DNA from: a virus
Virus record (IMG/VR): IMGVR_UViG_3300029587_000019
Coordinates: 1-40,932 of that record
Length of the DNA: 40,932 nt
Strand: one strand, 5' to 3'
Shown here piece after piece: positions 6,323 to 31,036 of this stretch. The first letter of the stretch is position 1; each line of letters begins with the position of its first letter. The translations under genes were made by a program, and so were the position numbers. The notes under the pieces are model-generated. The model saw nothing but the letters and a program-made list of their open reading frames with translations, was not told the origin of the DNA and made no database searches.

Positions 6323-6329
6323 TAATAAT

Positions 6330-7615: not shown

Positions 7616-7618
7616 CCA

Positions 7619-7690: not shown

Positions 7691-7837
7691 ATACCCCCGG
7701 CATCCGCCGGGGTCAGGAGGAAAGAAAGGATGGATGGAAAGAATGAGGATACGGATATAACCCCGCACCCTCATTCTGACACATATTTTTCTGCGCTTGC
7801 CCCGAATTGGGGGCAAAGACCAATTTTTTTTGCGATA

Positions 7838-8465: not shown

Positions 8466-8471
8466 CTCCCA

Positions 8472-8777: not shown

Positions 8778-8781
8778 TTTC

Positions 8782-9692: not shown

Positions 9693-9801
9693 TGTCAGAA
9701 GTCCTCCTCACATACGCCACGCAGTTCTCAGGGTCATTCCCACAAAGACATGGCGCATATACGCACGAATCACAAATTGTAAACATCTCAGTTAGTGTCA
9801 T
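9685..9801 (-). CDS. Tiny Cys-rich ORF (38 aa), uncertain
   Basis: Fills the gap between flanking genes, with overlapping stop/start on both sides. Found by hand translation. Confidence 0.3.
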   Translation of the reverse strand: MTLTEMFTICDSCVYAPCLCGNDPENCVAYVRRTSDNG

Positions 9802-9803
9802 TG

Positions 9804-10028
9804 TCAGCCCTCCTGTTTCAGCTCTTGCACAGTCTGGTGGATACGCTTCGCGCAGGCAGGGCATATTTCCCCCACATCCACTATGACATTCACTATGTCC
9901 GGGTTGCTGTCGTAGATGCTTGCGTTGCTCTCCACGCAGACCCTATAAGTTTCCTGAAGATTGTGTATTTCTTTTCCGCAAAGATCACAAAAACGCTTCG
10001 TCATGTTCTTTCCTTCCTCCTGTTCCAC
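9804..10028 (-). CDS. Hypothetical zinc-ribbon protein (74 aa)
   Basis: CDLCGKE...CPAC. Confidence 0.55.
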   Translation of the reverse strand: MEQEEGKNMTKRFCDLCGKEIHNLQETYRVCVESNASIYDSNPDIVNVIVDVGEICPACAKRIHQTVQELKQEG

Positions 10029-10183
10029 TCCTTAACAGCATCTTCTTTTGTGTGGCCTCGCTTTGCACCGGCCCCACATCTCTGACACTGTGAGAAGTAC
10101 CGATAGTACAAATACTCGTTATCATCCGCAAGTATCTCTACGCCCTTATATCCACAAAACGGGCACGGTTTTAAGTCATTCAT
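10001..10183 (-). CDS. lar: Lar-family restriction alleviation-like protein
   Basis: 60 aa with LKPCPFCG...CQRCGA...EDAVKEWNRR. Confidence 0.65.
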   Translation of the reverse strand: MNDLKPCPFCGYKGVEILADDNEYLYYRYFSQCQRCGAGAKRGHTKEDAVKEWNRRKERT

Positions 10184-10679
10184 CCTTCATCGCCTCCACA
10201 TAGCACCAGCTCTGGGGCGGGCGGCGAAGCGGCAAAGCCCCATTGTTGCAGATACCGCCGTTGTTGCTGTACATGGCGCAGGTCTCACAGCATAGGTCAT
10301 TAGGACAAATCCGCCGGAAGTCCGTCAGCTCCCGCGGCTGGTCATAGATCAGCAGGTCGGAGATGTGCCAGCCGTAAAGTATCTTGTCTTTAGCATACTT
10401 TTCCGTGTCAAATCCATCCATACAGGCAGCCATGCAAAAAATCGGGTTGGTATTCCGCGGTGAGCCTATCCAAAACCCATCGCAGGTAAACTCGCCGATG
10501 ACCTTGCCCCACGACCCGCGCAGCCTGCGTGCGTCTCTGCCTTGCGTGCAATAGATATAGCACCTGAACGGATTTTTCAGCTTTTTGGGGCGGGTCTTGC
10601 GGACCTCAATCGTTTTCTCACCGTTGGCGATTTTCTCGCACCACTTCGGGCGAATGCTGATAAGTACGGCTTTACTCAT
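10176..10679 (-). CDS. ASCH (PUA-like) domain protein
   Basis: 167 aa with N-terminal AVLISIRPKWCEKIANGEKTIEVRK. Confidence 0.6.
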   Translation of the reverse strand: MSKAVLISIRPKWCEKIANGEKTIEVRKTRPKKLKNPFRCYIYCTQGRDARRLRGSWGKVIGEFTCDGFWIGSPRNTNPIFCMAACMDGFDTEKYAKDKILYGWHISDLLIYDQPRELTDFRRICPNDLCCETCAMYSNNGGICNNGALPLRRPPQSWCYVEAMKDE

Positions 10680-11173
10680 GCTTTCTTCGCCTCCGATGCT
10701 TTCTCCGCCGCCTCGCGGGTCAGGAAAACGGTCTTGCCGATGTCTGCGCCATCATTACGCAGACGATACGCGCAGAACCCGTCCGGCTTGCGATTGCACG
10801 TTGACATACACAGATTATCCTCATCCGTGCATACAGTTCTGATGTCCGGGGCTTCAAGCTTCATTTCTCGCGGCATATTGTCACGGCCAGTCACCCATAG
10901 CGTTTCGCCCACCTTGCACGGCAGCACCACCAGCCGACCGTCCTTGTCGGCCTCGACCAGTTTCTCCAACCGGTCAAGGTCACAGCCTTGGCACAGTTGG
11001 CGGAGCTGCTCTGCGGCTTCGTGATCCATGTCGATTTCTTCTGGTGTCCGCTCCGTATCTTCATAGTCGGCGAGGCGGTTTGCCGCTGAAATATAATCGT
11101 GATTCTTTACCCGCACACCATAAATTTCTTTTGGGTCTGCGCAATTTACGTCTCTTTCCGTCAATCGTTCCAT
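10676..11173 (-). CDS. Hypothetical protein (165 aa)
   Basis: Start MERLTERD follows GGAGGAGG. Confidence 0.6.
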   Translation of the reverse strand: MERLTERDVNCADPKEIYGVRVKNHDYISAANRLADYEDTERTPEEIDMDHEAAEQLRQLCQGCDLDRLEKLVEADKDGRLVVLPCKVGETLWVTGRDNMPREMKLEAPDIRTVCTDEDNLCMSTCNRKPDGFCAYRLRNDGADIGKTVFLTREAAEKASEAKKA

Positions 11174-11177
11174 CTTC

Positions 11178-11477
11178 TTACCTCCTCCACCGACATCCAT
11201 CACAGGCCCCATCATGGGCCAGCGTGTAATTTCCGCATTTCAGGCACAGTTCGTTCCGCAGTGCGTCAATCTCTTTCGCCTGCGCTTCAATCCGGTCGGC
11301 TGCGGCAAGCCCCACCGCGTCAACATCGCAGGAGGGCCACTCCGTCAAATTGACTTTTCCCGCCAGATTTTCTGGGACCGGCTCAGTCTTGTAAAACGGG
11401 CATTTCTTGCAGTCGCCCATTGGCCCGCCTGCTGTTGAAACGCATCTCAAGGCATTTACGAGTTCTTGATCTCTCAA
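11178..11477 (-). CDS. Hypothetical Cys-rich protein (99 aa)
   Basis: ORF in the operon with CKKC...CLKC...CDGC. Confidence 0.55.
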   Translation of the reverse strand: MRDQELVNALRCVSTAGGPMGDCKKCPFYKTEPVPENLAGKVNLTEWPSCDVDAVGLAAADRIEAQAKEIDALRNELCLKCGNYTLAHDGACDGCRWRR

Positions 11478-11806
11478 AATGGTAGCTCTCCTTCCTCATC
11501 CTCCGCGAGCCAGAATGCCTTTCTACACTCAGAGCAAGTTTGCGCAGCGCAGTTAATGCCTGTATCTGAGAACACTTCCATCGGGCAAGCATGGAGGAAC
11601 CCGTCTATTGTAATTTGCGCGCCGGGGTAATGCTTTAGAAACTCGCTCTGGCGGGTTTTGACGGGATGCTCTGCGGCCCACTGTTCGACTTGCCTAACGA
11701 GTGATATAGGTTCAATATGTGCAATATTAAGTTCTTCACCGTAATAATCCGGGTTGCTTTTACTTCGTTTTTTCAGTTGTTCCAAAAACTCCACAGCATC
11801 CATCAT
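11474..11806 (-). CDS. Hypothetical protein (110 aa)
   Basis: ORF with overlapping stop/start on both sides. Confidence 0.6.
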   Translation of the reverse strand: MMDAVEFLEQLKKRSKSNPDYYGEELNIAHIEPISLVRQVEQWAAEHPVKTRQSEFLKHYPGAQITIDGFLHACPMEVFSDTGINCAAQTCSECRKAFWLAEDEEGELPF

Positions 11807-12180
11807 TCTGCCTCCTCAATTTCCACGCGGATCGTATCTCCGCTCCAAAATTTGTGTTCCACGGCGCGGAACCACTCAGGGTTGTCGTCCGGCAGTATGT
11901 AGCCCTTCATCGCGTCCACAAAGGCTTTGCCCAGCGCACCGTGATTGTCGATGTCCAGATTGTCATTCCAGAAAAATGTCACCTTGACGGGGTGATCTAC
12001 CAGACGTTTTGTAACCCCTGCTTTTCGCATTGCCCAGTGGGCAAGCTCGTGCAGCTCTTCCGCGTCCTTCTTCCGCTGCGACCAATGCTTACCGGCGTAA
12101 TACGCGTTCAGGCCAAACCGCTTGTTCCACGCCGCTTTACCGCGCTTTGTTGCCGGATAAGGGATCTCAAATGCAATCAC
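11803..12180 (-). CDS. rusA: RusA-family Holliday junction resolvase
   Basis: 125 aa with NDNLDIDNHGALGKAFVDAMKGYILPDDN. Confidence 0.7.
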   Translation of the reverse strand: MIAFEIPYPATKRGKAAWNKRFGLNAYYAGKHWSQRKKDAEELHELAHWAMRKAGVTKRLVDHPVKVTFFWNDNLDIDNHGALGKAFVDAMKGYILPDDNPEWFRAVEHKFWSGDTIRVEIEEAE

Positions 12181-12890
12181 CGCTTTTCCTCCTCACAAGT
12201 AAACAAACTGATCTGCGCCGTGTGTTCCTCAAAGCGCTTTTCCTGCGCCTGAAAATAGTGAGGGTCGATCTCACACCCAACAAAATCAAAGCCAAGATCA
12301 TAGGCGGCTATGCGGCTGCTGCCGCTGCCTAAGTGGGTATCCAGTATCTTGTCCCCCGGCTTTGCGTACTTCTGCAAAATCCATGTGTATAGCGCCACCG
12401 GCTTCTGCGTCGGGTGGATGCGCTTCTCATTGAGAGCTTTGTTCCCCTGCTGGACTGTCCCCTCTGCGATACTCTTCCCCTGCATCATGCCGCGCCACAT
12501 AAACCGGAATATGTCGGTTCTCAAATTCAAAGAGTTAAACGCAATCTCAGCCCCAGACTGATCGGCTCCGTCATTGCACTTGTCCCAGACGATTGCTCCG
12601 CTGCGAGGAAGAACAAAATAGTTTGCCCCCCAGATGATCTGATTCTTGCTGACCCGGAAAAGCTCCGCAAAGTACCGCTCATCCGCAGGGAAACGGTCAA
12701 AGCCGGTCTTTTCGTAGCCGCCATCCTTGACGTAAATCCGTGATCCATTCTTCTGTGTTACATAGCGGCTCCGGTCCTTACCGCCATCTTCTCCGATTCC
12801 ATAAGGCGGGTCTACCACAGCCAGATCAAACGCCTTGTCGGACAGCGTCCGCATATACTCCATGCAGTCCATGTTATAGGCTACGTTCAC
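12177..12890 (-). CDS. DNA methyltransferase (N4/N6, beta-class)
   Basis: 237 aa with VVDPPYGI, HPTQKP and DTHLGSGSS. Confidence 0.85.
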   Translation of the reverse strand: MNVAYNMDCMEYMRTLSDKAFDLAVVDPPYGIGEDGGKDRSRYVTQKNGSRIYVKDGGYEKTGFDRFPADERYFAELFRVSKNQIIWGANYFVLPRSGAIVWDKCNDGADQSGAEIAFNSLNLRTDIFRFMWRGMMQGKSIAEGTVQQGNKALNEKRIHPTQKPVALYTWILQKYAKPGDKILDTHLGSGSSRIAAYDLGFDFVGCEIDPHYFQAQEKRFEEHTAQISLFTCEEEKR

Positions 12891-13021
12891 CGCTTTTCCT
12901 CCTTGCCGTTGATGATGACGCTGACCACGCGGACGCGGCCCAGAGGCTCCAGCAGCATCGCCACCGCCTCCTTCGTTCCCTGCGTATCCTCGCCGTAAAT
13001 ATCAACCACGATCCGCATCAT
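12887..13021 (-). CDS. Tiny ORF (44 aa), uncertain
   Basis: Internal start MMRIVVDIYGED. Overlaps neighbours. Confidence 0.3.
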   Translation of the reverse strand: MMRIVVDIYGEDTQGTKEAVAMLLEPLGRVRVVSVIINGKEEKR

Positions 13022-13253
13022 TTCCCAGATCACCATCCAATTCCAGGTACGGCTGGAAGGAGCGCATTTTTTTACCGCACCTTGCGCACTTGTAGTTATA
13101 CATGGCATCGCAGCAGCCTGCTCCATCGTAGCTGTAATCAACGCCGGTGCGTTTCCAGTCATGCTGCTCGCATGGGCAAAGCCGTTCTTCCAGCTCTGCC
13201 ACTCGGTAACTAAGCCGGACTATTTCTGCTTTCAAGCGCTTATTTCCAAACAT
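13002..13253 (-). CDS. Hypothetical Cys-rich protein (83 aa)
   Basis: Coiled N-terminus followed by CPC...CARCG. Confidence 0.5.
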   Translation of the reverse strand: MFGNKRLKAEIVRLSYRVAELEERLCPCEQHDWKRTGVDYSYDGAGCCDAMYNYKCARCGKKMRSFQPYLELDGDLGNDADRG

Positions 13254-13260
13254 TTTTCAA

Positions 13261-13515
13261 TCATCCCCTCCTGAATTTGGGGCAGGCACGGACGCTGAAA
13301 GATTTCTCTACAAACTTCCCGCCGACCGTCCGTGTTGTGGCTATCGCATCCCATCCGGGAACCGGCTCAAACCGCGCCGACCACTCGCAGCCGCCGTATA
13401 CATTGGCGCAATTCCAACAAAGCTGTTGAGACTGGTACGTCACATCCGGCGTCCTTGCCGCCTTCCATCTCCGGCATGGGCGCACCAGCTCGGCCAGCTT
13501 AAAATCTCCCGCCAT
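13261..13515 (-). CDS. Hypothetical Cys-rich protein (84 aa)
   Basis: Start MAGDFKLAEL overlaps the upstream stop. Contains CWNC...GGCEWS. Confidence 0.55.
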   Translation of the reverse strand: MAGDFKLAELVRPCRRWKAARTPDVTYQSQQLCWNCANVYGGCEWSARFEPVPGWDAIATTRTVGGKFVEKSFSVRACPKFRRG

Positions 13516-21057: not shown

Positions 21058-21492
21058 ATGACAATTCAGGAAGTTTGTAAGGCGAAACGTAACGCTTTGG
21101 GTATGACCATTCAGGACATAGCTGAAGCATCGGGAATTCCGCCGTCTACCGTCAACAATTTCTTTACCCATGCTTCCAAGGCCCCCTATATCTCCACGGT
21201 TGGGCCAATATGCGCCGTCCTTGGCGTGTCGCTGGATGAATTTTACGGCATCGGAGATCATCTGACGGCCAGTGAGGAAACGTTGCAAGCGGAAAAGGAC
21301 GGACTAGAACACCGCCTTGAGAATAAGCGGCAGACCATCGGCCTGATGGACACAGAACTGTGCAATCTTTGGCACTCCGTGAAGCTATACAGGTGGATCA
21401 TACTCGGTTTGTCACTATTGATCATCGGGCTTTTTGCCTGGTGCGTTTGGGTTGACATCCATTGTGCTAACTATGGATTTTGGAGGGGATAA
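21058..21492 (+). CDS. Membrane-anchored XRE-family HTH protein
   Basis: 144 aa. N-terminal HTH (LGMTIQDIAEASGIPPSTVNNF), C-terminal TM (WIILGLSLLIIGLFAWCVWV). RBS AAGGAGG. Confidence 0.7.
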   Translation: MTIQEVCKAKRNALGMTIQDIAEASGIPPSTVNNFFTHASKAPYISTVGPICAVLGVSLDEFYGIGDHLTASEETLQAEKDGLEHRLENKRQTIGLMDTELCNLWHSVKLYRWIILGLSLLIIGLFAWCVWVDIHCANYGFWRG

Positions 21493-21493
21493 C

Positions 21494-22834
21494 ATGTGCC
21501 AAAAAATAGTGGTCACTCTACCAAATAATCTACGCATCCGTGTAGCACTGTACATCAGGGTATCGACCGAAGAACAGGCGAAGCACGGCCTGTCCCTGGC
21601 AGACCAGCGGGAGGCTCTGATTGCATATGCCGCCGCACACGGCATGGAGGTTGTGGGCATTTACGAGGACGCCGGAATCAGCGCCAGAAAGCCGTATAAA
21701 AAGCGTCCGGCCTTGATGCGCCTGCTTGATGATTGCCGCGCCGGGAAAATCGACACCATCCTTTTTGTCAAGCTGGATAGGTGGTTTCGGAATGTGGCGG
21801 GGTACTACGCCGTGCAAGAGGTTCTCGACAAAAATCATGTGGATTGGCAGGCCATCAGAGAGGACTACGAAACGCGGACTGCATCAGGGCGATTGAAGGT
21901 CAATATTATGTTGTCGGTAGCGCAGGACGAAGCTGACCGCACATCGGAGCGCATTAAGGCCATCAACGAGGGCAAGAGGGCAAAGGGCCAGCCCACCAAC
22001 GGGAAAACTCCTATCGGAATCTGCGTGAAGAACCGGCGCTACGCCATTGATGAAGAAACCGCAGATGCGGCGCGAGATATGTTCCCAGCCTTTATACGGC
22101 TGCAAAGCATCCTTGCGCTAAGGCGGTATATGGCAACGGAGTGGGGGATCAAACGCTCGTACAACAAATACAAGGATGCGTTGAAAAGCCGCCTGTACTT
22201 AGGTGAGGCGTTCGGCGTGGAAAACGCATTGCCTGCACTTGTCGATCAAGAAACCTTTGACCTTGCTGGGAAAATCTTGGAACGGCGAAGCCAGCGGAAC
22301 GCCAGTGCGGATCGAATATATTTGTTTACCGGAATTCTCCGTTGCCGGGAGTGCGGTAGAAATATGCAGCCGGAGACTGTAAAGCAGGTGTACAAGTACT
22401 ACCGATGCAGAACGCACACACTTGATCCAGCCGACTGCCCGCACATCCTCAGAATCCGAGAAGATGTGCTTGAGGATTACCTTCTGCGGGAATTTGAGGG
22501 GATCGCAAAAAAGTATTACTCCAAATCAAAAACCGCAGAAAAAAAGCAGCCCAAAACGGCGGAGCAAATCAAGCGGAAAATGCAAAAACTGAAAGACCTG
22601 TATCTGTCGGATTTGATTGAAATCGAAGAATACAAAAAAGACTATACGGAATTGAAACAGCAGCTCGCGGCAATAAACCCGGAGCCTATAAAAGAATTTG
22701 ACCTTGAAACATTACGGCGAGAGTTGAAGGAATATCCTGATTTAGACCGGCAGGCAAAAAAGGAATTTTGGGTACGCACAATCCAGCGCATCGACGCAGA
22801 CAATGACGGTGCGTTTTTTGTAACGCCAAGTTAG
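21494..22834 (+). CDS. int: Large serine recombinase (integrase)
   Basis: 446 aa with RVALYIRVSTEEQ (catalytic Ser motif), recombinase and zinc-ribbon parts (CRECG...C...C), and a C-terminal coiled coil. Confidence 0.9.
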   Translation: MCQKIVVTLPNNLRIRVALYIRVSTEEQAKHGLSLADQREALIAYAAAHGMEVVGIYEDAGISARKPYKKRPALMRLLDDCRAGKIDTILFVKLDRWFRNVAGYYAVQEVLDKNHVDWQAIREDYETRTASGRLKVNIMLSVAQDEADRTSERIKAINEGKRAKGQPTNGKTPIGICVKNRRYAIDEETADAARDMFPAFIRLQSILALRRYMATEWGIKRSYNKYKDALKSRLYLGEAFGVENALPALVDQETFDLAGKILERRSQRNASADRIYLFTGILRCRECGRNMQPETVKQVYKYYRCRTHTLDPADCPHILRIREDVLEDYLLREFEGIAKKYYSKSKTAEKKQPKTAEQIKRKMQKLKDLYLSDLIEIEEYKKDYTELKQQLAAINPEPIKEFDLETLRRELKEYPDLDRQAKKEFWVRTIQRIDADNDGAFFVTPS

Positions 22835-22874
22835 TCTTATTTTCATGTCGCAACGCTAACATTAAAATATAACT

Positions 22875-22900
22875 AACCCCTCGGCATTTGCCGAGGGGTT
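22875..22900. terminator. Bidirectional hairpin between convergent genes
   Basis: aacccctcggc-attt-gccgaggggtt. Confidence 0.7.
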
Positions 22901-22904
22901 AAAT

Positions 22905-23207
22905 TTAGCTTTCCAATTTCCGCATGACGCTATTGTAAACCCGCTCGTTGACCACTTTCAAGCTGTCCATCAGCTCGTCCATGACCTCCCACGCACGGGC
23001 TGGGTCAACGTTAGACACCGCCCGGAGGAAATCGCTGTCCGGTGCGGGAACCGCAGAATACGCCTCAACCATACGGTTTTCCCTCACCGGCTCTCGGTTC
23101 TGGTTTTGGATGGTATACAGCGCCGCCAGCTTTTCATAGTTTGCCCAGCTGGATTCTTCCGTCTCTAACCGCTTGATCCATAGCGCCACTTCTCGCTCGT
23201 CAATCAT
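22905..23207 (-). CDS. Hypothetical protein (100 aa), accessory island
   Basis: RBS AAGGGGG. No family recognised. Confidence 0.6.
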   Translation of the reverse strand: MIDEREVALWIKRLETEESSWANYEKLAALYTIQNQNREPVRENRMVEAYSAVPAPDSDFLRAVSNVDPARAWEVMDELMDSLKVVNERVYNSVMRKLES

Positions 23208-23222
23208 TGGGGCCTACCCCCT

Positions 23223-23588
23223 TTAGTCCTCCATCATGTCCATTGCACGGCGCAGGGCGTCCTTGATGCGATCATCGTCGGTTTCCCGCATCATATCGTT
23301 GATCTGATCGCGCAGATGCTCAGTTGCGTCCGTGCGGCTGTAATGACCACGGACATAATGCCGACGGGCATAGGAGTTGCCACGGCTGTAGCCGCGTAGA
23401 TCATCGTCCAGATAGCGGCCAGAATAGCCGCGCTCGTCCATCGCATCGATCTTGTCGATGTTCTTGATGGTATCGGTCAGCTTGTGGGCAATGTCCAGAT
23501 CCCCGGCGCCCAGCTCGCCCTTGCGGATCAGCTCGTCAAGTTCCTTGCAGAGCATATCCCGCAGTTCATACATAGATTTCATTCCCAT
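23223..23588 (-). CDS. Hypothetical charged, Arg/Tyr-rich protein (121 aa), accessory island
   Basis: Start MGMKSMYELRD follows AAAGGAGAA. Confidence 0.6.
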   Translation of the reverse strand: MGMKSMYELRDMLCKELDELIRKGELGAGDLDIAHKLTDTIKNIDKIDAMDERGYSGRYLDDDLRGYSRGNSYARRHYVRGHYSRTDATEHLRDQINDMMRETDDDRIKDALRRAMDMMED

Positions 23589-23602
23589 TGTGTTCTCCTT
23601 TC

Positions 23603-24028
23603 TCAGCAAACTCTGGTAATGATAAGGTTCGCGTTGCTCACGTCAATGTCCTCGCCACTAACGTTGCGGATGGACAGCGACGCGCAGCAGCCCTTTGTAA
23701 CGTCAACGTACTCGGACGCCGCCACGTTGAAAAATGCCCCCGCAACCGTGGGCGTCACCGTCGCAACGGAGGACGGGAGCGGCTCACCGTCAACCGCAAT
23801 GGCAACGGAGATGGGGCCGGGGGTCCCGCCGGTGCTTACGGCAATATTGCCGATAAAGTCCACCTTATAGCGGACGCGGCACTGGGAGCAGTTACCACGG
23901 AGGTTAAACAGACCGGAGCCTGCGCGGTGCGCCACAAGGCCCTTGGTGCAGGGGATCGGTGCCTCGGTAAAAAGCACGTTCTGGTTTGCCGCTACAGTTT
24001 GCGCGGCAACAGCAGTGTATTCAGGCAT
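23603..24028 (-). CDS. Beta-rich 141-aa protein. A jelly-roll fold (TNF/C1q/BclA-C-terminal-like) is suspected.
   Basis: Pattern RYKVDFIGNIAVSTGGTPGPISVAIAVDGEPL...SLSIRNVSGEDIDVSNANLIITRV. The fold call is a guess from the sequence pattern. Confidence 0.6.
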   Translation of the reverse strand: MPEYTAVAAQTVAANQNVLFTEAPIPCTKGLVAHRAGSGLFNLRGNCSQCRVRYKVDFIGNIAVSTGGTPGPISVAIAVDGEPLPSSVATVTPTVAGAFFNVAASEYVDVTKGCCASLSIRNVSGEDIDVSNANLIITRVC

Positions 24029-24144
24029 AAAAAACTCCTTTCATAAAATCAGCGGCAGGGCTACTGCCCCGCCGCTTTGTCATCAGTATCGACACGGGGC
24101 CGATCATTTCCCCAGCATGGGGGAAAAGCTACGCTATGCAGTTG

Positions 24145-24861
24145 TCAGCAACCGCATCCGGCAAACTGGTTGCAGCAATAGGGGTTCTGCACCGTGTAGG
24201 CCGGAATGGGAGAAGGGCGCAGCTGGGACACCAGATAGCTGTTCTGCGCCGCCTGAGATGCGGCCAGCTTCAAGCCCTGATTCTCGCTCTGGAGATCCTG
24301 CAGCTTGCTCTGGGTCAGGAAGTCCAGGATCGCGCGGCTGTTGCTGTTGGCATTGTCGATAATGTCCCGGGTGGCGTTCTGCACCGTGTTCCGGGTATCG
24401 CAAGCCTGAGCGGCCATGTCATAGCGCACGCCCTCAATGCTGCGCTGGGTGTTGCAGCAGCACTCAGCGGCCTGCATCTGCATGGCAGTCAACTGCTGCA
24501 TGAGAGCCGCCTGCTGGTTACTGCGGGAAAGCTCAGCCTGCCCAAAGCCGTTTGCCATCGCCATGTTGGTGCCGTTGATAAGCTGCGCCTGCTGGTAAAA
24601 TCCGTCGCAAAGACCCTGATTTACACTGTCGATCTTGCGCTCGACATTGGCAAAATCAGAGGTCAGGACATAACCGTCCATCACGCCGTTGCCGCCGCCA
24701 CCGAAACCGAAGCCGTTACCCCAGCCGCCGAACGCAGCGAAAATGAGGAACAGCACGATCCACCATGCGCCATCGCCGCCCCAGCCGAAGCCGTTACCGT
24801 TTCCGGTGTTGGCAGGAGCCACAGGCATAGTCAGCATGGTGCCGTCAGAGGAAAGAGACAT
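24145..24861 (-). CDS. Gly/aromatic-rich membrane protein with a Q/N-rich helical region and Cys clusters (238 aa)
   Basis: GNGNGFGWGGDGAWWIVLFLIFAAFGGWGNGFGFGGGGNG; ...AAECCCNT...; C-terminal NPYCCNQFAGCGC. Confidence 0.65.
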   Translation of the reverse strand: MSLSSDGTMLTMPVAPANTGNGNGFGWGGDGAWWIVLFLIFAAFGGWGNGFGFGGGGNGVMDGYVLTSDFANVERKIDSVNQGLCDGFYQQAQLINGTNMAMANGFGQAELSRSNQQAALMQQLTAMQMQAAECCCNTQRSIEGVRYDMAAQACDTRNTVQNATRDIIDNANSNSRAILDFLTQSKLQDLQSENQGLKLAASQAAQNSYLVSQLRPSPIPAYTVQNPYCCNQFAGCGC

Positions 24862-24914
24862 AGTATCACTCCTTTTGAAAAAATATTTATATCAAACCGT
24901 GGCCACGATTTTGA

Positions 24915-25136
24915 TTACTTGAAAAGCCCCTGAAATTGGTTTGCCATTGACTGTATCTTGTTCAACTGATCTTGTGAGATTTTGCCGCTTTGCAGCATCT
25001 TCTCCACTTCCGCTTTTGGGTCGCCTTTAAAACTTGCCTTGAACTGCTTGAACTGCTGTAAAAGCTGAGGAAAGCCGCTCATCGACCCCGGCATCTGTCC
25101 GCCACCTAACGCATTGAAAAACGGATTGTTACTCAT
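24915..25136 (-). CDS. Hypothetical small protein (73 aa)
   Basis: RBS AGGAGG. Sequence MSNNPFFNALGGGQMPG... Confidence 0.6.
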   Translation of the reverse strand: MSNNPFFNALGGGQMPGSMSGFPQLLQQFKQFKASFKGDPKAEVEKMLQSGKISQDQLNKIQSMANQFQGLFK

Positions 25137-25196
25137 CGTCCTCTTCCTCCTCTACCTTGCGCTTCTTCTTGCCCTTCAATTCGCCCACAAGCGCCG

Positions 25197-25565
25197 CTAG
25201 TGCGTCGAATTCTTTTCTGGTGACACAAACTCCACGCCCTTTTCCTGCGTGGCTGTACGGGGCGTTTCTGTGCGTTCTACGAGGTCATAAATCGTGAGGG
25301 ACGGTTTACCGCTGGCATCCGCCTTCTTGAGGTACACCGTAGGCGCGGAGCTGTCCCACAAAGCCACGGCGGCATTGGGTGCAATCATCCAGTTCCGGGC
25401 CTCCTGTTCGCCGCTGACCCACTGCACACCGCTCTGCGCCACCGGATTCTGAGGGGGCTGTGGTGCCATCATTGGAGGCATCTGCTGTTGACGGAGTTGT
25501 GCCAGATTATCCGGCATGGGCTGTGCATAATAAGGGTTTTGCCATCCGTAAGGTGTGTAAGCCAT
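25197..25565 (-). CDS. Hypothetical protein with a P/Q-rich N-terminus (122 aa). A possible frameshifted C-terminal extension runs to 25129.
   Basis: Start MAYTPYGW lies 9 nt after GGAGG. The alternative frame is described in findings. Confidence 0.6.
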   Translation of the reverse strand: MAYTPYGWQNPYYAQPMPDNLAQLRQQQMPPMMAPQPPQNPVAQSGVQWVSGEQEARNWMIAPNAAVALWDSSAPTVYLKKADASGKPSLTIYDLVERTETPRTATQEKGVEFVSPEKNSTH

Positions 25566-25566
25566 T

Positions 25567-25977
25567 TTAGTCATCCTCCTTGACCCAGTAATACAAGATG
25601 TTCTCGTTGCTGCTGTCCCAGCTGTCCCAGATCATGCCGTCGCAGACGCAGACCACATGGCCGGACAGAGCCAGAATATAGGTGCCTTTTGGGTGATCCT
25701 CCGCAAATTGGCCCACCGTGTAGCAGTCTGGGCAGGTGTCCGGCACGATGTACCGCCGATATCCGATGCTGCGGAGATACCGCCCCCAACAGGCGTTTGC
25801 CGACGGCATATCCCCGTCCAGATACCCTTGGATACAGAGCCGCAAATAAATTTCGCCCCAATCCATCCCGGTAGCCTTGACGATTGCCCGCACGGTGCAG
25901 TCCCCTACATTTTTCCCGCAGGGGTTGGGGTTGAAATGGTTATACATACTCCCTCCGGTCATCGTATAAAAGCTCAA
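25567..25977 (-). CDS. Hypothetical protein, possible papain-like Cys/His fold. Start uncertain (25947-25977).
   Basis: GDCTVRAI ... GHVVCVCDGMIWDSWD. Assignment is speculative. Confidence 0.55.
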   Translation of the reverse strand: MSFYTMTGGSMYNHFNPNPCGKNVGDCTVRAIVKATGMDWGEIYLRLCIQGYLDGDMPSANACWGRYLRSIGYRRYIVPDTCPDCYTVGQFAEDHPKGTYILALSGHVVCVCDGMIWDSWDSSNENILYYWVKEDD

Positions 25978-26077
25978 TCATGCGCACACAGCGTTCCAGC
26001 TCCGCTGGATCGGTCTGCGCTATGATCTCTCGCGCCAACTCCGCCGGATACCCGCAGGCCAAAAGCCGCTCGTACAT
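25940..26077 (-). CDS. Tiny ORF (45 aa), first gene of the island, uncertain
   Basis: RBS AAAGGAGG 8 nt upstream. Sequence MYERLLACGYPAELAREIIAQTDPAELERCVRMIELLY. Confidence 0.35.
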   Translation of the reverse strand: MYERLLACGYPAELAREIIAQTDPAELERCVRMIELLYDDRREYV

Positions 26078-26125
26078 TGTGTGCGCCTCCTTTACACGTA
26101 TATGATACAAAAAATCCGGACAGCC

Positions 26126-26169
26126 AAACTGCCCGGAAACTGCCTGTATTCTGCCCTCAAACTGCCATA
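26126..26169. repeat. Four tandem 11-bp units (AAACTGCCnnn; the third unit is ATTCTGCC) in the divergent control region
   Basis: Units start at 26126, 26137, 26148 and 26159. Read directly. Confidence 0.9.
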
Positions 26170-26195
26170 AAAATATTTTGAGAAATTCGGTTTAA

Positions 26196-26233
26196 CCTAT
26201 TGACAATAGGTTAAACCTATTGTATATTATAGG
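26196..26233 (+). promoter_or_regulatory. Promoter (TTGACA 26200-26205, 17-nt spacer, TATATT 26223-26228) overlapped by two CCTAT..ATAGG inverted repeats
   Basis: CCTATTGACAATAGG (26196-26210) and CCTATtgtatattATAGG (26216-26233). Confidence 0.65.
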
Positions 26234-26260
26234 TACAGTAAAGGAAAGGGGTACGCGAAA

Positions 26261-26491
26261 ATGTGGAAGGAAGGTAGCATCAAGGTCAACGGCGAGAGTT
26301 TTCACTACTGGATGAAGCAATACGATGAAGGTTCTAAATGGGGAATTGATGGAGGTCGCATTTCCAAGCTGATGCTCAAGCGGAACGGCGAAATTGTTTG
26401 CAACTATGACAGAGGTTGGGACATAGAACCCGCCGACGAGAACACCCGTATTGCCACGGAGCATCTGATCCGCAGCGACAAAGGAGAATGA
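26261..26491 (+). CDS. Hypothetical protein (76 aa)
   Basis: First gene of the plus-strand cassette. Contains WGIDGGRISKLMLKRNGEIVCNYDRGWDIEP. Confidence 0.65.
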   Translation: MWKEGSIKVNGESFHYWMKQYDEGSKWGIDGGRISKLMLKRNGEIVCNYDRGWDIEPADENTRIATEHLIRSDKGE

Positions 26492-26493
26492 AA

Positions 26494-26739
26494 ATGAAAA
26501 CCATCTACATCAAGATTTCCGGCTATGATACTTTTTACAAGGCCGTTTTTTCCGTGCGTAAATCCAACAAGGGAAACCGCATCGCCCATCTGGAAGAAAA
26601 AACCGAGATTTCCAAAGCCGCATATTACAAGATCCCTGCCGAAAATCGCGCGATTTTTAGCGGTGACATTAACCGGGACATCCACGAAATCGGGAACACT
26701 GCGCTGCTGGATCTGATCGAAGCACAGGAGGGGGCCTGA
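26494..26739 (+). CDS. Hypothetical protein (81 aa)
   Basis: ATG 6 nt after GGAGA. Confidence 0.55.
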   Translation: MKTIYIKISGYDTFYKAVFSVRKSNKGNRIAHLEEKTEISKAAYYKIPAENRAIFSGDINRDIHEIGNTALLDLIEAQEGA

Positions 26740-26916
26740 ATGCCGGATAGCGAAGCGAAACGCCAGTGGATGTCGCAAAACACCACCTTCATCGGGCTAA
26801 AGCTCAACAACAACACCGATGCCGACATCCTCGCCGCGCTGGAAGGCAAGGCCCGCCAGACGGAGATCAAGCGGCTCATCAGAAAAGGTCTGGAGGTGGA
26901 GCGGAATGACGCGTGA
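26740..26916 (+). CDS. Small putative ribbon-helix-helix-like protein (58 aa)
   Basis: Hand translation gives MPDSEAKRQWMSQNTTFIGLKLNNNTDADILAALEGKARQTEIKRLIRKGLE. Below the ORF-track cutoff. Confidence 0.45.
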   Translation: MPDSEAKRQWMSQNTTFIGLKLNNNTDADILAALEGKARQTEIKRLIRKGLEVERNDA

Positions 26917-27145
26917 GCGAACAAAGCGGATGCCTGACGGGAAGATCTATCACTATATCATGTCAGATGCCGCCGTTGAGAAAGAGGACCAGGCGAAAAA
27001 GCGGTGGCGTGCTGAGAACTATACCAGACTAACGGCTGACATCCCTAAAGAAATGATGCAGCAGATCTCCGATGCCGCCGCCAGCAGAAGAATTTCTAAG
27101 CGTCAATTCATTATCGAAGCGCTCGAAAATGAGCTGGAAAGATAG
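26906..27145 (+). CDS. Small putative ribbon-helix-helix-like protein (79 aa)
   Basis: KKRWRAENYTRLTADIPKEMMQQISDAAASRRISKRQFIIEALENELE. Confidence 0.5.
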   Translation: MTRERTKRMPDGKIYHYIMSDAAVEKEDQAKKRWRAENYTRLTADIPKEMMQQISDAAASRRISKRQFIIEALENELER

Positions 27146-27181
27146 AGGAAAGCCGTGTCCGAATCGGACACGGCTTTCCTC
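27145..27181. terminator. Perfect 18-bp-stem palindromic hairpin between convergent genes
   Basis: gaggaaagccgtgtccga-a-tcggacacggctttcctc. No clear T-run. Confidence 0.55.
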
Positions 27182-27416
27182 ATCCCTGCATATCATCCGC
27201 GATCTTGGCGTAGGCACGCCGCCGGATCTTGGCAAGGCCGTCCACGCTGACGTGGAGCAACGCCGCCGCCTGTAGACAGCTCTGGCCGTGGACGTCCACC
27301 GCCAGCACCGCCGTCTCCTCGTCAGGCGGCAAGCCTACCAGCCGGACGGCCTGCGCCGCCCGGGCCGGGGCCATGGATGACAACAGCGCCCGGATCTCTC
27401 GGTTTGTTTTTTCCAT
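27180..27416 (-). CDS. Small HTH protein resembling sigma-70 region 4. The true start may be ATG 27462 in another frame.
   Basis: LQAAALLHVSVDGLAKIRRRAYAKI. ATG 27416 has no RBS, whereas ATG 27462 follows AAAGGAGGG. Confidence 0.5.
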   Translation of the reverse strand: MEKTNREIRALLSSMAPARAAQAVRLVGLPPDEETAVLAVDVHGQSCLQAAALLHVSVDGLAKIRRRAYAKIADDMQG

Positions 27417-27485: not shown

Positions 27486-27887
27486 TTAGCTCGTCCAGTC
27501 GGAGCGTTTCTCCCGCACGTCGATGTGGGTAAAGCCCTTCTTGGCGTAGATGCCTACGCCGCCCCAGTCCGGCATCAGCTGTCGGGCGAAGGTCGCCACC
27601 GTCTCCGGTTTCTGGCCGCTGACGGAAATATCCGCCGCCATGCCATAGCAGTGCTGGCTGTGGGCCACGCCGCCGACCTTGGCATTGTACTGCGGTGTGC
27701 GGTACCCGCTGTGGATGACCACCGGAGCGCCGAAGTGGGTGCGGATGCTCTCCAGCACCATCACCAGCCGGGGAGCCACCAAAACAGCGTCAGACCCGTC
27801 TCCACACGCAAACTCCCGCACCTTGAAATGCGCGGAGAGCTGCTTCCCCCCGGAGGCGGCTTTGCTGTAAGCGTTGATCTCAACCAT
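27486..27887 (-). CDS. Peptidase M15-family cell-wall hydrolase (endolysin)
   Basis: 133 aa with HFKVREFACGDGS...SGYRTPQYN...HSQHCYGMAADI. Confidence 0.8.
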   Translation of the reverse strand: MVEINAYSKAASGGKQLSAHFKVREFACGDGSDAVLVAPRLVMVLESIRTHFGAPVVIHSGYRTPQYNAKVGGVAHSQHCYGMAADISVSGQKPETVATFARQLMPDWGGVGIYAKKGFTHIDVREKRSDWTS

Positions 27888-28560
27888 GGTTATTCCCCCT
27901 GATCTGATACAGCGCCCGGACCATGTCGGCGCGGGTCACCGTGTCGCCGGCGTTGGCGTCTGTCAGCAGGCCGTGAGCCTTGCCCCATACGAGGGCTTGA
28001 TCTTCCGCCTTGGCAGACCGTTCCCAGAACAGCAGCATGGTAGGCACCTTCCGGGTGCTGACCACCTTCCCACCGGGAAAGATGCCCTGGGTAGAGCCGC
28101 CGCCGTCCAGCATGAGGGCGTCCACCACGCCCAGCCCCAGCAGCTTATTCTGGAGCTGCTCACGGGTCAAACTGGACTTGTCGCACCACAACACCACCTT
28201 GCCGTTTGCCAGCCAGCCTACCGCCGTCCGGGCCGCAGACCGGGCCACGTCTGGCGTCAGATTCCGGTACAGCTTGGAGCCGCCCTTGAGGATGGGCACG
28301 CCAGAAAGGAAGCTGCCGCCCCGGTCCGTCAGCATCTTAGGTTTACCGTCATTGCCAATGGCCACGCCCCAGTCCTGGTATTTGTCCCGGCTGATGATCT
28401 TACCGTCAATCACCGTCCAGCCCACCGGCTGAAACTTGCCGTTAAACAGGTAGCCGTTGATGATGTGGGTGCAGCCGGTCTTGGCCTTGATCTGCGCCGG
28501 GGTCAGCTTGCCGGTGTTGTGGTAGATCTGCGCACGGGCGCAGTCAAACGTATCAACCAT
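27880..28560 (-). CDS. Phosphodiester glycosidase (NAGPA-like) family protein, putative second lysin
   Basis: INGYLFNG...TAVGWLANGKVVLWC...ALMLDGGGSTQ. Confidence 0.6.
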   Translation of the reverse strand: MVDTFDCARAQIYHNTGKLTPAQIKAKTGCTHIINGYLFNGKFQPVGWTVIDGKIISRDKYQDWGVAIGNDGKPKMLTDRGGSFLSGVPILKGGSKLYRNLTPDVARSAARTAVGWLANGKVVLWCDKSSLTREQLQNKLLGLGVVDALMLDGGGSTQGIFPGGKVVSTRKVPTMLLFWERSAKAEDQALVWGKAHGLLTDANAGDTVTRADMVRALYQIRGNNHG

Positions 28561-28879
28561 GGCGCACACGGGAAGCCTTGAGGAAGTAGCCGTCCTCGTC
28601 ATAAGTCACCTCATAGGTGGCTCCGACGATCCGCTGGATCTGGACGGTGCCCGCCAGATCCTCCCGGCGACGGGTATCCAGCGTCTGAGGGAGCGCCTCC
28701 GGCTCGGTCTCAGCCGGGATAAAGCCCTCCCGCATTTCGTCCTCGGTCCAACCGGCCACGCCGCCGTCAGGATTCAGGTGGAAGTTGGCCCCCGCCGCTT
28801 TCAGTTTGGCATTGATAGCCTCGATTGTCTTGCCGGCGGCCTTTCCCTCGTTGATGATGTTCTCGTAGATCTTTTCCAT
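28553..28879 (-). CDS. Hypothetical protein (108 aa)
   Basis: Start MEKIYENI follows AAAGGGG. Confidence 0.55.
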   Translation of the reverse strand: MEKIYENIINEGKAAGKTIEAINAKLKAAGANFHLNPDGGVAGWTEDEMREGFIPAETEPEALPQTLDTRRREDLAGTVQIQRIVGATYEVTYDEDGYFLKASRVRHG

Positions 28880-29571: not shown

Positions 29572-31026
29572 TCAGTCGGTGGTCTTGGTGTATTTAAGCG
29601 TCGCATCAACACCATTTGTGTATTCTTTGATTCGAGCTAAGGCGTTAGAGCCAAGCTCAAATTTTATAACAGACGAATTTAACATATACTGAGCCGACCA
29701 TGCAGTTGAATCAAAGTACGACCACGGGAGTATCCTGATCCAATCAGCTCTGCAATACACGCGTGCATCTACTAGGCGGTCCAGATGATCGATTCCATGG
29801 CTATACGATGGAAGCTGATTTTCAAAAGCGGATACTGGAATATTAAAGGTCTTTGTGTACACCGGCTTTCCGAGATACCGCTCCGTGGTGCGGTACTCAG
29901 TGCCAAGCGTCATGGGCGGGTTGATCCATTCGACGGGCTGCCAATTCCCGTTATCCTTCAGCATTCGCCACAATCCGTTGGTAGTGCCTCTCGGGTCGGG
30001 CGAAAGGCCGATCAGTGATGCGCTCGTCCCCAATATTTTTGATAGAACGGCAACGATATTCCCGGCCCCAGAATATTGGCCCGTTGAAACTGGGCCACGT
30101 GTATAAATAAGTTGCGATGTTCCGTCGGGCATATCGGCAAGCAACATATCAAGCTTGCCACAGTATGTTTCATAGGTGTCTTTGGCATCGGATGCAAGCA
30201 CATCTTTCATCGCTTCACCCCACCCAAACCCGCCGGGGACGGAGTTGATATTTTTCCGCACCTGCGCCTTCTGTGCATCGCTGAGCGTCTGCGGCGTGTA
30301 GAGCACCGCACCCTGTACGGTGTCCGCGCCGATGTTCGTCCGGGCCTGCGCCTTCTGCTCGTCTGTGAGGTTCTGGGGCGCGTCGTAGCGGACGAAGTTG
30401 CTGGAGCCGCCCACAGGGCCTTCCGGGCCTTGCTTCCCCTCCGGCCCCTGCTTTCCTTCGGGGCCTTGGATGCCCTGCTTGCCCTGCGGGCCTTGCAGGT
30501 TGCCGTTGGGTACCCACTTGCCGTGGACGGAATCCCAGATGTAGATGTTGTACGGAGGCGCAGTGCCCACGCCATACACGTCACCGGCCTTGGGATTGGG
30601 GACGGCTGCCTTGAGGGCGTCCAGCGTATCAAAGTAACCCAAAATGACGAAGCTGGAACCGGCCTCGCCGGGATCGCCCTTGTCGCCCTTTTTACCGGGA
30701 GGGCCGATGGGGCCTTTAATGGACGTCAGCGTGGTCAACGTAAAGGCATACACCCAGTTGGCCGTGCCCTTGAGGTACACCTTGCCATAGTCCGCAGAGG
30801 CCGTGCTGTCCGGCAGAATCAAAACGAACTGGCCGCGCTGGACGTCCGCACCGGTGAAGTCCTGGTTCATCTCGGTTACGCTCTTGTACTCCTTGGTGAT
30901 GCCGATAGGCACACCGGCGGAGGCCAGCCGCGCGTCGATCTCCTCGCCGGAGTAGGCGGATGTGTAATAGTCTTGCAGCTTGGCGAAGATCTCCTCCAAA
31001 ACTGCGATTCTCTGTTCAAGCGTCAT
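29572..31026 (-). CDS. Tail fibre with collagen-like (G-X-Y) repeats
   Basis: GPIGPPGKKGDKGDPGEAG and GPQGKQGIQGPEGKQGPEGKQGPEGPVG. The 3' ~600 nt look lower in GC by eye (not counted). Confidence 0.8.
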   Translation of the reverse strand: MTLEQRIAVLEEIFAKLQDYYTSAYSGEEIDARLASAGVPIGITKEYKSVTEMNQDFTGADVQRGQFVLILPDSTASADYGKVYLKGTANWVYAFTLTTLTSIKGPIGPPGKKGDKGDPGEAGSSFVILGYFDTLDALKAAVPNPKAGDVYGVGTAPPYNIYIWDSVHGKWVPNGNLQGPQGKQGIQGPEGKQGPEGKQGPEGPVGGSSNFVRYDAPQNLTDEQKAQARTNIGADTVQGAVLYTPQTLSDAQKAQVRKNINSVPGGFGWGEAMKDVLASDAKDTYETYCGKLDMLLADMPDGTSQLIYTRGPVSTGQYSGAGNIVAVLSKILGTSASLIGLSPDPRGTTNGLWRMLKDNGNWQPVEWINPPMTLGTEYRTTERYLGKPVYTKTFNIPVSAFENQLPSYSHGIDHLDRLVDARVYCRADWIRILPWSYFDSTAWSAQYMLNSSVIKFELGSNALARIKEYTNGVDATLKYTKTTD

Positions 31027-31036
31027 TGGAATCACC

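Follow-up and report, generated by a model that had tools for sequence, protein, structure and literature searches.

The IMG/VR virus record IMGVR_UViG_3300029587_000019 (positions 1 to 40,932, the whole of this 40,932-nucleotide stretch being called the window below) has the appearance of a complete temperate siphovirus-type genome in which the minus strand, read from about 40.8 kb to 27.5 kb, carries the genes for head, tail and lysis, and it raises the question of what a block of eight small genes, here O1 to O8 in minus-strand order, is doing near its integrase gene. The original prediction, made from the sequence alone, had described this block as an accessory island without recognisable phage function in the classical moron position, whose products might serve lysogenic conversion of the host envelope or spore. 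Our analysis firmly supports a different description, in which the eight open reading frames (ORFs) and a small helix-turn-helix (HTH) gene upstream of them, SIG78, constitute one conserved, separately regulated phage module, with a membrane-type, Cys-rich coiled-coil protein (O5) and an exchangeable beta-sandwich partner as its core. As to function, we favour, with somewhat less than even confidence, a module of the phage cycle whose products assemble at the infected-cell membrane and act on the envelope late in the lytic cycle, and which is not made for spores.

A conserved gene set with a constant order

All eight ORFs were recovered on the minus strand where they had been predicted (Table 1). 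Matches to PHROG families for O2-O6 (E 1e-23 to 1e-48) and O7 (2e-8) indicate coding rather than chance reading frames, and each ORF has homologues on tens to hundreds of independent contigs. Since these matches are accompanied by protein homologues of 30-100% identity in the same order in 86 loci, O1-O8 are genuine genes. Function is annotated as unknown for every PHROG family matched by O2-O7, and scans of all eight proteins against Pfam, NCBIfam and PADLOC gave no match above threshold. The statement that the block lacks a recognisable phage function is thus borne out with regard to function but not to kinship, as the proteins belong to established phage protein families.

Synteny was compared in 166 loci, namely 6 contigs with near-identical O5 and 80 IMG/VR contigs (together the 86 loci) plus 80 GTDB genome contigs, the IMG/VR and GTDB loci being located with a narrow O5 alignment. 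O2, O3, O4 and O5 are present in 86 of the 86 loci, O6 in 84, O7 in 83 and O8 in 70, and the gene order is identical throughout, down to 52% O5 identity. SIG78 homologues lie upstream of the module in 58 of them. The flanks behave differently: the M15 and NAGPA lysins of the window recur in only 13 of the 86 loci and its integrase in 29. An iterated hidden Markov model search of the 166 loci recovered O5 in 165, O2 in 136, O7 in 134, O3 and O6 in 133 each, O4 in 123, O8 in 89 and O1 in 55. The 80 genome loci display two orders, O2-O3-O4-O5-O6-O7-(O8) and (O3)-O5-O6-O7-O2, so that the O2 gene may precede O3 or follow O7. The genome scan yielded mostly Oscillospiraceae and other Clostridia as hosts, with some labelled 'Bacilli' in metagenome-assembled genomes (MAGs); cultured examples include Anaerotruncus colihominis DSM 17241, Agathobaculum desmolans and Muriventricola aceti. 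A moron or lysogenic-conversion cassette would be expected to occur sporadically, which the synteny of the 86 loci contradicts. All loci examined share the gene set and its order even though the lysins and integrases beside it differ, and the co-occurrence of the set in phages of Clostridia argues against a one-off island.

A reduced form of the module was also observed. In Muriventricola aceti (L133, NZ_JAOQKF010000004.1, 5849-13296), an element of about 8 kb adjoining an ABC-transporter ATPase gene is made up of nothing but small ORFs and the genes for a Hol44 holin, an Amidase_2 lysin, O5, a small beta protein (O6b, see below), a tyrosine integrase and a DUF7841 protein. Possibly a prophage in decay, or else a mini-element, it would have retained only lysis genes and the module, and as such it hints at a functional link of the module with lysis, and proves nothing.

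The core proteins and their relatives

In O5, a hydrophobic helix lies between two Gly-rich segments, the first of which is also rich in aromatic residues; these are followed by a Q/N-rich coiled coil bearing a CCC motif, and by a Pro-rich tail that ends in Cys clusters. The features that had been noted in it (a Gly-rich, hydrophobic N-terminus, ECCCN and the C-terminal NPYCCNQFAGCGC) are all present, and its assignment as a membrane-type protein is supported by a hydrophobic 15-mer with a mean Kyte-Doolittle value of 2.17 as well as by the conserved Cys clusters. The CCC motif is found in 142 of 142 family members and C236 in 97%; LAASQAAQN is also conserved, and the tail reads P-x-P-x-P-A-Y-x-V-x-N-P-Y before ending in the Cys clusters. 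The suggested likeness of the N-terminus to YjcZ-type sporulation peptides turned out to be one of composition only, i.e. a Gly-flanked hydrophobic stretch, since no NCBIfam or Pfam model matches at E<=1 and members of the YjcZ family (TIGR01732-type) are peptides of about 30-50 aa, as against 238 aa for O5. Sequence and profile comparison of O5 with the Protein Data Bank (PDB) returned only weak coiled-coil-type matches. A holin role was considered for O5 and rejected on account of two holin-like ORFs upstream of the lysins, of 63 aa (two transmembrane helices) and 101 aa (one). With 1734 representatives at 50% identity the family is very common in human-gut assemblies, and near-identical copies occur on hundreds of metagenome contigs.

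The family extends well beyond Clostridia. Searching GenBank phages by tblastn with O5 recovered full-length relatives in at least a dozen crAss-like phages (e.g., cr116_1 gp_24157, annotated 'spike protein/glycoprotein'), in Bacteroides phage C3_41T2LP, which was isolated on B. uniformis, in six Clostridium perfringens phages and in two viruses assigned to Methanomassiliicoccales by their records. All share the layout of Gly-transmembrane-Gly, CCC, LAASQQAQ and Pro/Cys tail, and the C. perfringens phage CPD1 additionally encodes recognisable SIG78, O3 and O8 homologues. In cr116_1, the O5-like gene is preceded by genes for a holin, an L,D-carboxypeptidase, a small HTH protein and an HExxH protein, and downstream of it come genes for a Cys-containing beta protein of 136 aa, a protein of 168 aa, an R/Y-rich protein of 74 aa and another HExxH protein. 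This arrangement follows the same logic as that of the window, with O5 as the only component recognisable by sequence; hhalign found no homology between O6 and the 136-aa protein, or between O3 and the 168-aa protein. Neither Bacteroides nor methanogens are known to sporulate, and crAss-like phages are generally regarded as non-temperate. Because O5 occurs in phages of Bacteroides, in methanogen viruses and in crAss-like phages, spore-directed lysogenic conversion is not the general function of the family.

In crAss-like phages, Bacteroides phages and the Anaerotruncus prophage, the O5 block is bordered by small HExxH metallopeptidase-like genes (L168 2910-3257 and 5490-5885; L118 8103-8432; L169 8770-9234). 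They belong to phrog_1365 and have weak SprT-like matches, one being annotated as 'PolyVal metallopeptidase', and they might be the counterpart of O2.

The structure check confirmed that O6 is a TNF/C1q/BclA-C-type jelly roll. Its AlphaFold2 model (mean predicted local distance difference test, pLDDT, 90.4) has the ten-strand TNF/C1q-type fold, and Foldseek gives a probability of 1.00 to 9h38, 1wck, 2z5w and EDA-A1. The best PDB matches are the C-terminal domain (CTD) of F-BclA, ExsF, ExsFA, BxpB and BclA (E 1e-7 to 4e-6, TM-score 0.66-0.77), with TNF ligands ranking after these exosporium proteins. At the sequence level, neither BclA_C (PF18573) nor any other Pfam model matches O6 at E<=1, and phmmer against PDB sequences gave chance matches only (E>0.2). 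O6 has 179 homologues, in which C50 and C114-C115 are conserved. BFVD contains O6-like stand-alone proteins of 130-145 aa from MAGs of sipho-, podo- and myoviruses, and collagen-like and tail-fibre proteins carry this fold as their C-terminal knob. None of the module proteins contains GXX repeats. The only collagen-type repeats near the block are the G-X-X repeats (GPIGPPGKKGDKGDPGEAG; GPQGKQGIQGPEGKQGPEGKQGPEGPVGG) of a 487-aa ORF upstream of the lysis genes (29572-31035, minus strand), which is tail-fibre-like by position and has no link to O6.

In 30 loci, all among those without an O6 match, the slot after O5 is occupied by O6b, an unrelated small Cys-rich beta family that includes proteins like CPD1_040 and a 143-aa ORF of the Anaerotruncus prophage; hhalign detected no homology between O6 and O6b. 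This swap identifies O5 plus an exchangeable small beta partner as the constant core of the module. The last gene of O6b-type modules encodes a protein of 243-262 aa that is rich in R/Y/D in its N-terminal half and has a DUF7841 domain at the C-terminus (L118 11195-11926; L133 11044-11832); this protein stands in place of O7/O8 and has no homology to either by hhalign.

The combination of a coiled coil and an exchangeable jelly roll brings to mind an accessory virion fibre, with O5 as a trimeric shaft, O6 or O6b as the exchangeable distal knob and the remaining proteins as assembly factors. This would agree with the fold being the usual tip of viral collagen-like and tail-fibre proteins, with knob swapping as in host-range cassettes and with annotations of crAss and Bacteroides O5 relatives as 'spike protein/glycoprotein' or 'outer capsid protein/viral fiber', and the product of the second gene downstream of O5 in the Bacteroides phage (7523-8056) has a helical segment in common with phrog_473 ('virion structural protein'). 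The labels, however, appear to reflect coiled-coil similarity only, and the strongly hydrophobic helix of O5 would be odd in a soluble tailed-phage fibre. Moreover, the module lies after the lysis genes, with a terminator between it and the structural operon, and no docking partner is conserved across the unrelated virion types concerned, which comprise siphovirus-like prophages (with tape-measure-sized tail genes), crAss-like phages, a C. perfringens phage named a podovirus and an archaeal virus. Taking these points together, we regard a virion fibre as unlikely and retain envelope action by a membrane-assembled module as the preferred reading.

O2 was predicted to be a papain-like Cys/His protein on the basis of the motif GDCTVRAI...GHVV...D. 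The motif is present, and its D16, C17, H97 and D108 are invariant among 1735 homologues, as are S109-W110 following D108, and C72, C75 and C100. In the AlphaFold2 model (pLDDT 94.6), C17 starts a helix (17-26), H97 precedes a strand (98-102) and D108 ends another (105-108). The layout of Cys at a helix N-terminus, His and Asp-Ser-Trp thus agrees with the papain-like assignment, whereas a significant fold match is lacking: the best Foldseek hit in the PDB has E 0.25, with papain-fold entries only at TM-scores of 0.2-0.4, and the O2 profile gave E>0.4 against PDB sequences and no Pfam match. O2 is therefore best described as a candidate Cys-His-Asp enzyme, clan-CA-like by motif.

The remaining proteins are small and compositionally biased (Table 1). 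O1 has only a weak Pfam match to DUF7674, and 20 diverse O3 relatives gave no match in Pfam scans. Compared with the near-identical loci L001 and L004, the O3 gene of the window carries a 2-bp TG insertion near 25215 (about 25210-25220) that shifts the frame and removes about 30 residues; the intact protein of these relatives has 144 aa and a charged KGKKKRKVEEEEDDE tail, with a stop codon overlapping the start of O4. The insertion is either a sequencing error or a natural knock-down. O7 probably starts at the ATG at 23588, giving 121 aa. O1, O2, O3, O4, O6, O7 and O8 are devoid of hydrophobic N-termini and transmembrane-like segments, so that, the hydrophobic helix of O5 aside, no module protein has a segment of the kind that could export it in a living lysogen.

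Control elements and the prophage end

Placing the block between integrase and lysis module was correct in outline, except that it does not abut the lysis genes: SIG78, a terminator and a plus-strand cassette intervene. SIG78 begins 69 nt past the M15 lysin gene, and the terminator scan shows no terminator-like hairpin in this gap, which suggests expression in the lytic cycle; the hairpin behind SIG78 is also present in four relatives (L001, L005, L012 and L014). The window copy of SIG78 matches Pfam Sigma70_r4_2 at E 1.3e-4, with 22.0 bits against a cut-off of 25.7, and its homologue in the Anaerotruncus prophage (L118) matches Sigma70_r4 with 33.8 bits against a cut-off of 24.1.

Upstream of O1, the last of the direct repeats lies within a hairpin (26115-26137) that is followed by a T-run, TATCAT (26102-26107) and a GGAGG ribosome-binding site. 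GGCAGTTT occurs six times in the window, three of these clustered upstream of O1, and a count of six was reached in none of 100 shuffles. The same layout of repeats, terminal hairpin, T-run and TAnnAT box recurs across lineages with different repeat sequences, and these repeats vary in step with variants of the C-terminal helix of SIG78. From this co-variation in sequence we infer that SIG78 is the putative cognate regulator of the module.

Table 1. Positions of the module genes, their control elements and neighbouring features in the window
Feature	Position	Strand	Remarks
Large serine recombinase (integrase)	21434-22834	+	
Approximate attP crossover	22845-22865		From comparison of integrated (L004) and free forms
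Bidirectional terminator hairpin	22873-22902		Common to O8 and the convergent integrase gene; terminator scan
O8	22905-23207	-	100-aa acidic helical protein; last module gene
O7	23223-23588/23609	-	121 or 128 aa; helical, Arg/Tyr/Asp-rich low-complexity centre (phrog_28802)
O6	23603-24028	-	141-aa stand-alone TNF/C1q/BclA-C-type jelly roll (phrog_20016)
Structured O5-O6 spacer	24029-24144	-	Variable hairpin, conserved UCGGC...GCCGA hairpin, strong terminator hairpin (24051-24076)
O5	24145-24861	-	Core protein, 238 aa (phrog_16490)
O5 control region	24862-24914	-	Perfect palindrome CGTGGCCACG (24898-24907), A/T-rich GATATAAAT box, AAAGGAG ribosome-binding site
O4	24915-25136	-	73-aa Q/G/K-rich helical protein (phrog_22984)
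O3	25197-25565/25574	-	122 or 125 aa; P/Q/Y-rich N-terminus and small conserved beta domain (phrog_21718)
O2	25567-25947	-	126 aa from the ATG used by relatives, 136 aa from an upstream TTG (phrog_3754)
O1	25940-26077	-	45-aa helical protein; stop overlaps the O2 ATG at 25947 (ATGTATAA)
O1-O4 control region	26101-26170	-	Three exact GGCAGTTT repeats and one GGCAGAAT
Inserted cassette between SIG78 and O1	26261-27145 (wider bounds 26180-27145)	+	3-4 small ORFs
Strong terminator-like hairpin	27145-27181	-	17 pairs; closes the lysis/SIG78 transcript; terminator scan
SIG78	27180-27416	-	78-aa sigma-70-region-4-like HTH protein, putative module regulator; outside the originally predicted block
Peptidase_M15 endolysin-type gene	27486-27887		
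NAGPA endolysin-type gene	27880-28602		

Hairpins with T-runs had also been predicted at 24862-24914 and about 24050-24085 and taken to separate transcription units. They exist and are conserved in relatives, and the idea of separately transcribed units is broadly right in that the hairpins divide the block into expression units. Upstream of O5, a GC-rich palindrome followed by a (G/C/T)ATAAAT-like box is found in nearly all of 69 distinct sequences, CGTGGCCACG itself occurring once in the window. These palindromes are mostly palindromic through the centre while their arms differ by lineage, and this complementarity through the centre favours a DNA operator over an RNA hairpin. In the O5-O6 spacer, the T-run of the terminator abuts the O6 ribosome-binding site. 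RNAalifold on 35 spacer sequences predicts 15 pairs, of which 10 show compensatory changes, and many of the pairs are G-U on the sense strand, and the conserved hairpins are also present in homologous spacers of loci L007-L163. No Rfam family covers this spacer or the O4-O5 palindrome. The spacer is possibly an attenuator or an mRNA-stabilising element, and the likely effect of these elements is high O5 output with attenuated O6-O8.

In the integrated copy L004 (a 170-kb contig), similarity to the phage forms extends to about window position 22852, just beyond the bidirectional terminator and the end of the integrase gene, where host DNA begins. O8 is the last phage gene there, and the host genes next to it encode, among others, SleB-type (Hydrolase_2) and Germane-domain proteins. 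As O8 is the last gene before attP, the module is the outermost prophage block in the lysogen, and the classical moron position is therefore right as a description of location. The real moron-type insertion hot spot, by contrast, is the interval between SIG78 and O1 and not the block of eight genes: it measures 257-259 nt when empty and 745-1793 nt when filled, the plus-strand cassette of the window is found there in 1 of the 86 related loci, and different cassettes occupy the same spot in other phages. The cassette ORFs of the window encode 76 aa (DUF7678), 107 aa and 58/108 aa, and its promoter (TTGACA-17-TATATT) lies inside a 13-bp operator-like inverted repeat (26189-26217). A gene of 207-218 aa adjoins O5 in CPD1 and in some relatives, either between O5 and O6 or directly upstream of O5 (L001-L006, about 10903-11559; L167 5044-5667). 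By sequence inspection it looks like an HNH/AP2-type homing endonuclease, and if it is one, the O5 region would be a target of homing elements.

The position at the prophage end bears on lysogenic conversion, in which the prophage would supply coat- or exosporium-like building blocks for the host spore or envelope. Such a role would fit with the outermost location by attP and the module's promoter- and terminator-like elements, with the mostly clostridial hosts of the genome scan and with the SleB-type and Germane-domain genes beside the integrated copy, which make that host look spore-forming. It would also fit with exosporium ExsF, BxpB and BclA being the best solved-structure matches of O6, and with a coat-like composition of Cys-rich, Gly-rich and R/Y-rich proteins alongside a Cys-His-Asp enzyme that is possibly transglutaminase-like. 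Against it stands the distribution of O5: a prophage-only role leaves the proteins of crAss-like phages and of a plaque-forming Bacteroides phage unexplained, and the occurrence of the family in the B. uniformis phage and the Methanomassiliicoccales-assigned viruses, together with the replacement of O6 by an unrelated protein in 30 loci, contradicts the spore or exosporium interpretation. In addition, the strict conservation is unlike that of conversion genes; the BclA_C, ExsFA and YjcZ models are unmatched, collagen repeats and an exosporium-targeting N-terminus are lacking, and no N-terminus resembles a signal peptide. SIG78 behind the endolysin with no hairpin between, and the lack of export-capable N-termini besides the O5 helix, likewise speak against conversion. 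When sigmaK and sigmaE promoters (AC-N16-17-CATAnnnTA; CATACAnT) were looked for by eye, the (G/C)ATAAAT box upstream of O5 was only loosely similar, and no clear sigmaE/K-type promoter was seen in the upstream sequences viewed in this way, a dedicated scan not having been run. We therefore consider spore or envelope conversion the least likely of the remaining rivals and very improbable; a position at the prophage end and a spore-like protein composition are insufficient to call a lysogenic-conversion island.

Superinfection exclusion, or membrane-level protection more generally, would use the same position differently, with an O5 complex in the membrane of the infected or lysogenic cell blocking DNA entry by other phages. 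Exclusion genes, known from systems such as HK97 gp15, T4 Imm and lactococcal Sie2009, typically lie at the prophage end and have a promoter to themselves; the module is likewise located at the prophage end and has promoter-like elements. The single transmembrane-like helix of O5 is compatible with such a role, which would suit temperate and virulent phages alike, and a swappable O6/O6b partner could set specificity. Yet known exclusion systems have 1-2 genes as against seven to nine here, and the nine proteins matched no anti-phage defence system in PADLOC at E<=0.1. High conservation across different virions is ill-suited to an arms-race gene, and the putative regulator is tied to the lysis operon. 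Exclusion as the main function hence appears improbable to us, about as much so as a virion fibre, and action on the envelope late in the lytic cycle remains the reading that we prefer.

Two further features of the window lie well away from the module. Rfam reports a gathering-score match to skipping-rope RNA (RF02924, 45.3 bits) at 7278-7372 (minus strand), as well as a tRNA model match (53.5 bits) at 7622-7690 (minus strand) that is unconfirmed, ARAGORN finding no tRNA in the window.

A role at the envelope and comparison with known systems

The sequence of events under the preferred reading would be as follows. The HTH protein SIG78 would be co-produced with the endolysin, from the end of the late operon, and would bind the direct repeats upstream of O1, thereby switching on O1-O4. 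O5 would be driven by its own palindrome-controlled promoter and strong ribosome-binding site, and the conserved terminator behind it would pass only part of the transcription on to O6-O8, so that O5 would be made in excess. The glycine-flanked helix of O5 would insert into the cytoplasmic membrane, with its coiled-coil stalk held together by the CCC motif and the C-terminal Cys clusters. ExsF clamps the N-terminal peptide of the fibre protein F-Anchor at its trimer interface (PMC12357932); by analogy, O6 could clamp a partner peptide at a putative trimer interface, an O6 trimer capping the Pro-rich tail of O5. The predicted enzyme O2 would process or cross-link the Q-, K-, P-, G-, R- and Y-rich proteins O3, O4, O7 and O8. 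The resulting action on the envelope might be egress or lysis control, or exclusion of further phages.

Several observations weigh against this sequence of events. Its timing is read from gene layout only, and the terminator before the module together with the module's own putative promoters would equally permit expression in a lysogen. Because hhalign linked neither O6 nor O3 to the crAss-like proteins, module-level homology outside the Firmicutes is carried by O5 alone. Almost no Lys or Arg is found in either flank of the O5 hydrophobic 15-mer, and for this reason its topology is not predictable. The invariant CPDC and HVVC of O2 could instead form a zinc or redox site. No component receives a functional assignment from Pfam, NCBIfam, PADLOC or the PDB. 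Finally, the O5 gene does not lie beside lysis genes in C3_41T2LP and CPD1, and a lysis role is not required, because the phage already has canonical-looking holins.

These last two points count equally against a more specific proposal, in which the module is an extra lysis or egress device and O5, as a membrane-anchored coiled coil, completes envelope disruption in the manner of a spanin or a class-III-holin-like regulator. The proposal draws on the location of the module just downstream of the endolysin in temperate Firmicutes loci with annotated flanks, and also in cr116_1, and on the holin and amidase kept with the module in the reduced Muriventricola element; envelope proteases could belong to such a device too. 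O5 also resembles the lambda Rz/Rz1 spanins and the T4 class III holin T in its single N-terminal hydrophobic helix, its long coiled coil with conserved Cys, its Pro-rich end and its usual place directly behind the endolysin. It differs from them in having no sequence or profile similarity, in having five to seven conserved companion genes plus a putative regulator of its own, and in lacking a lipoprotein partner: no lipobox-bearing outer-membrane partner was noticed among the translations of the module and its neighbours, on which no formal lipobox scan was run, and the soluble partners lack hydrophobic N-termini. Clostridia, which make up most of the hosts, are monoderm and need no spanin. 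On balance we give such a device little credence, somewhat less than we give to exclusion or a fibre.

A bolder version of membrane assembly would have the module construct, on the infected-cell membrane, a protein layer or fibre array with covalent cross-links, a phage-made analogue of the spore coat or the cornified envelope, with O2 as a transglutaminase-like cross-linker and the exchangeable jelly-roll knob as its cap. The substrates of O2 would then be the Gln/Pro-rich O3, the Gln/Lys-rich O4, the Arg/Tyr-rich O7 and the glycine-loop, Cys-rich O5. We hold this to be a long shot, of the same order as a lysis device; if true, viruses of anaerobic gut Firmicutes, Bacteroidota and methanogenic archaea would have the core protein of a cross-linked layer in common.

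Whichever envelope function applies, the module must matter in the cycle of anaerobic-gut phages, because it is kept, with its own putative regulator, while lysins and integrases are swapped. The O5 family spans three host phyla, and every record of it is either hypothetical or mislabelled as 'spike' or 'fiber'. Literature searches on the PHROG and DUF identifiers, phage-encoded exosporium proteins, crAss lysis cassettes, C. perfringens virion proteomics and YjcZ with phage returned no description of the module genes. Finding the role of the module would annotate thousands of dark-matter genes of the gut virome and could reveal a new step of infection, be it egress, exclusion or intracellular assembly. 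The Anaerotruncus colihominis DSM 17241 prophage, Bacteroides phage C3_41T2LP and C. perfringens phage CPD1 are tractable systems for this purpose.

Among known systems, the Bacillus exosporium proteins (the CTD of BclA, ExsF/ExsFA/BxpB and F-BclA) share the jelly-roll fold with O6, and ExsFA and BxpB are likewise stand-alone domains of about 140 aa. Sequence identity is 12-16%, however, and O6 belongs to a phage module, can give way to an unrelated protein and has a fold that is common at viral fibre tips. It consists of the jelly roll only, unlike a BclA-type glycoprotein with its collagen-like GXX stalk and N-terminal exosporium-targeting peptide. O2 resembles clan CA papain-like peptidases and transglutaminase-like or NlpC/P60 enzymes in the order of Cys (helix N-terminus), His (strand start) and Asp-Ser-Trp, comparable to the Asn-Ser-Trp of papain, and differs from them in that no structural or sequence match is significant. 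With the late-gene activators TP901-1 Alt and RinA/ArpU, SIG78 has in common that a small sigma-region-4-type HTH protein is encoded next to 10-11-bp direct repeats arrayed immediately ahead of a promoter, and that the repeats co-vary with the protein. Unlike theirs, the SIG78 gene follows the lysis cassette and appears to control this module only instead of the terminase-to-lysis operon, and the window copy of this putative regulator scores under the Pfam cut-off. Morons and lysogenic-conversion cassettes resemble the module in lying between lysis genes and attP with promoter- and terminator-like elements of their own, but are sporadic and phage-specific, whereas the content and order of the module are kept across distant phages. 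Overall, we rate the module as lying outside the known kinds of phage systems.

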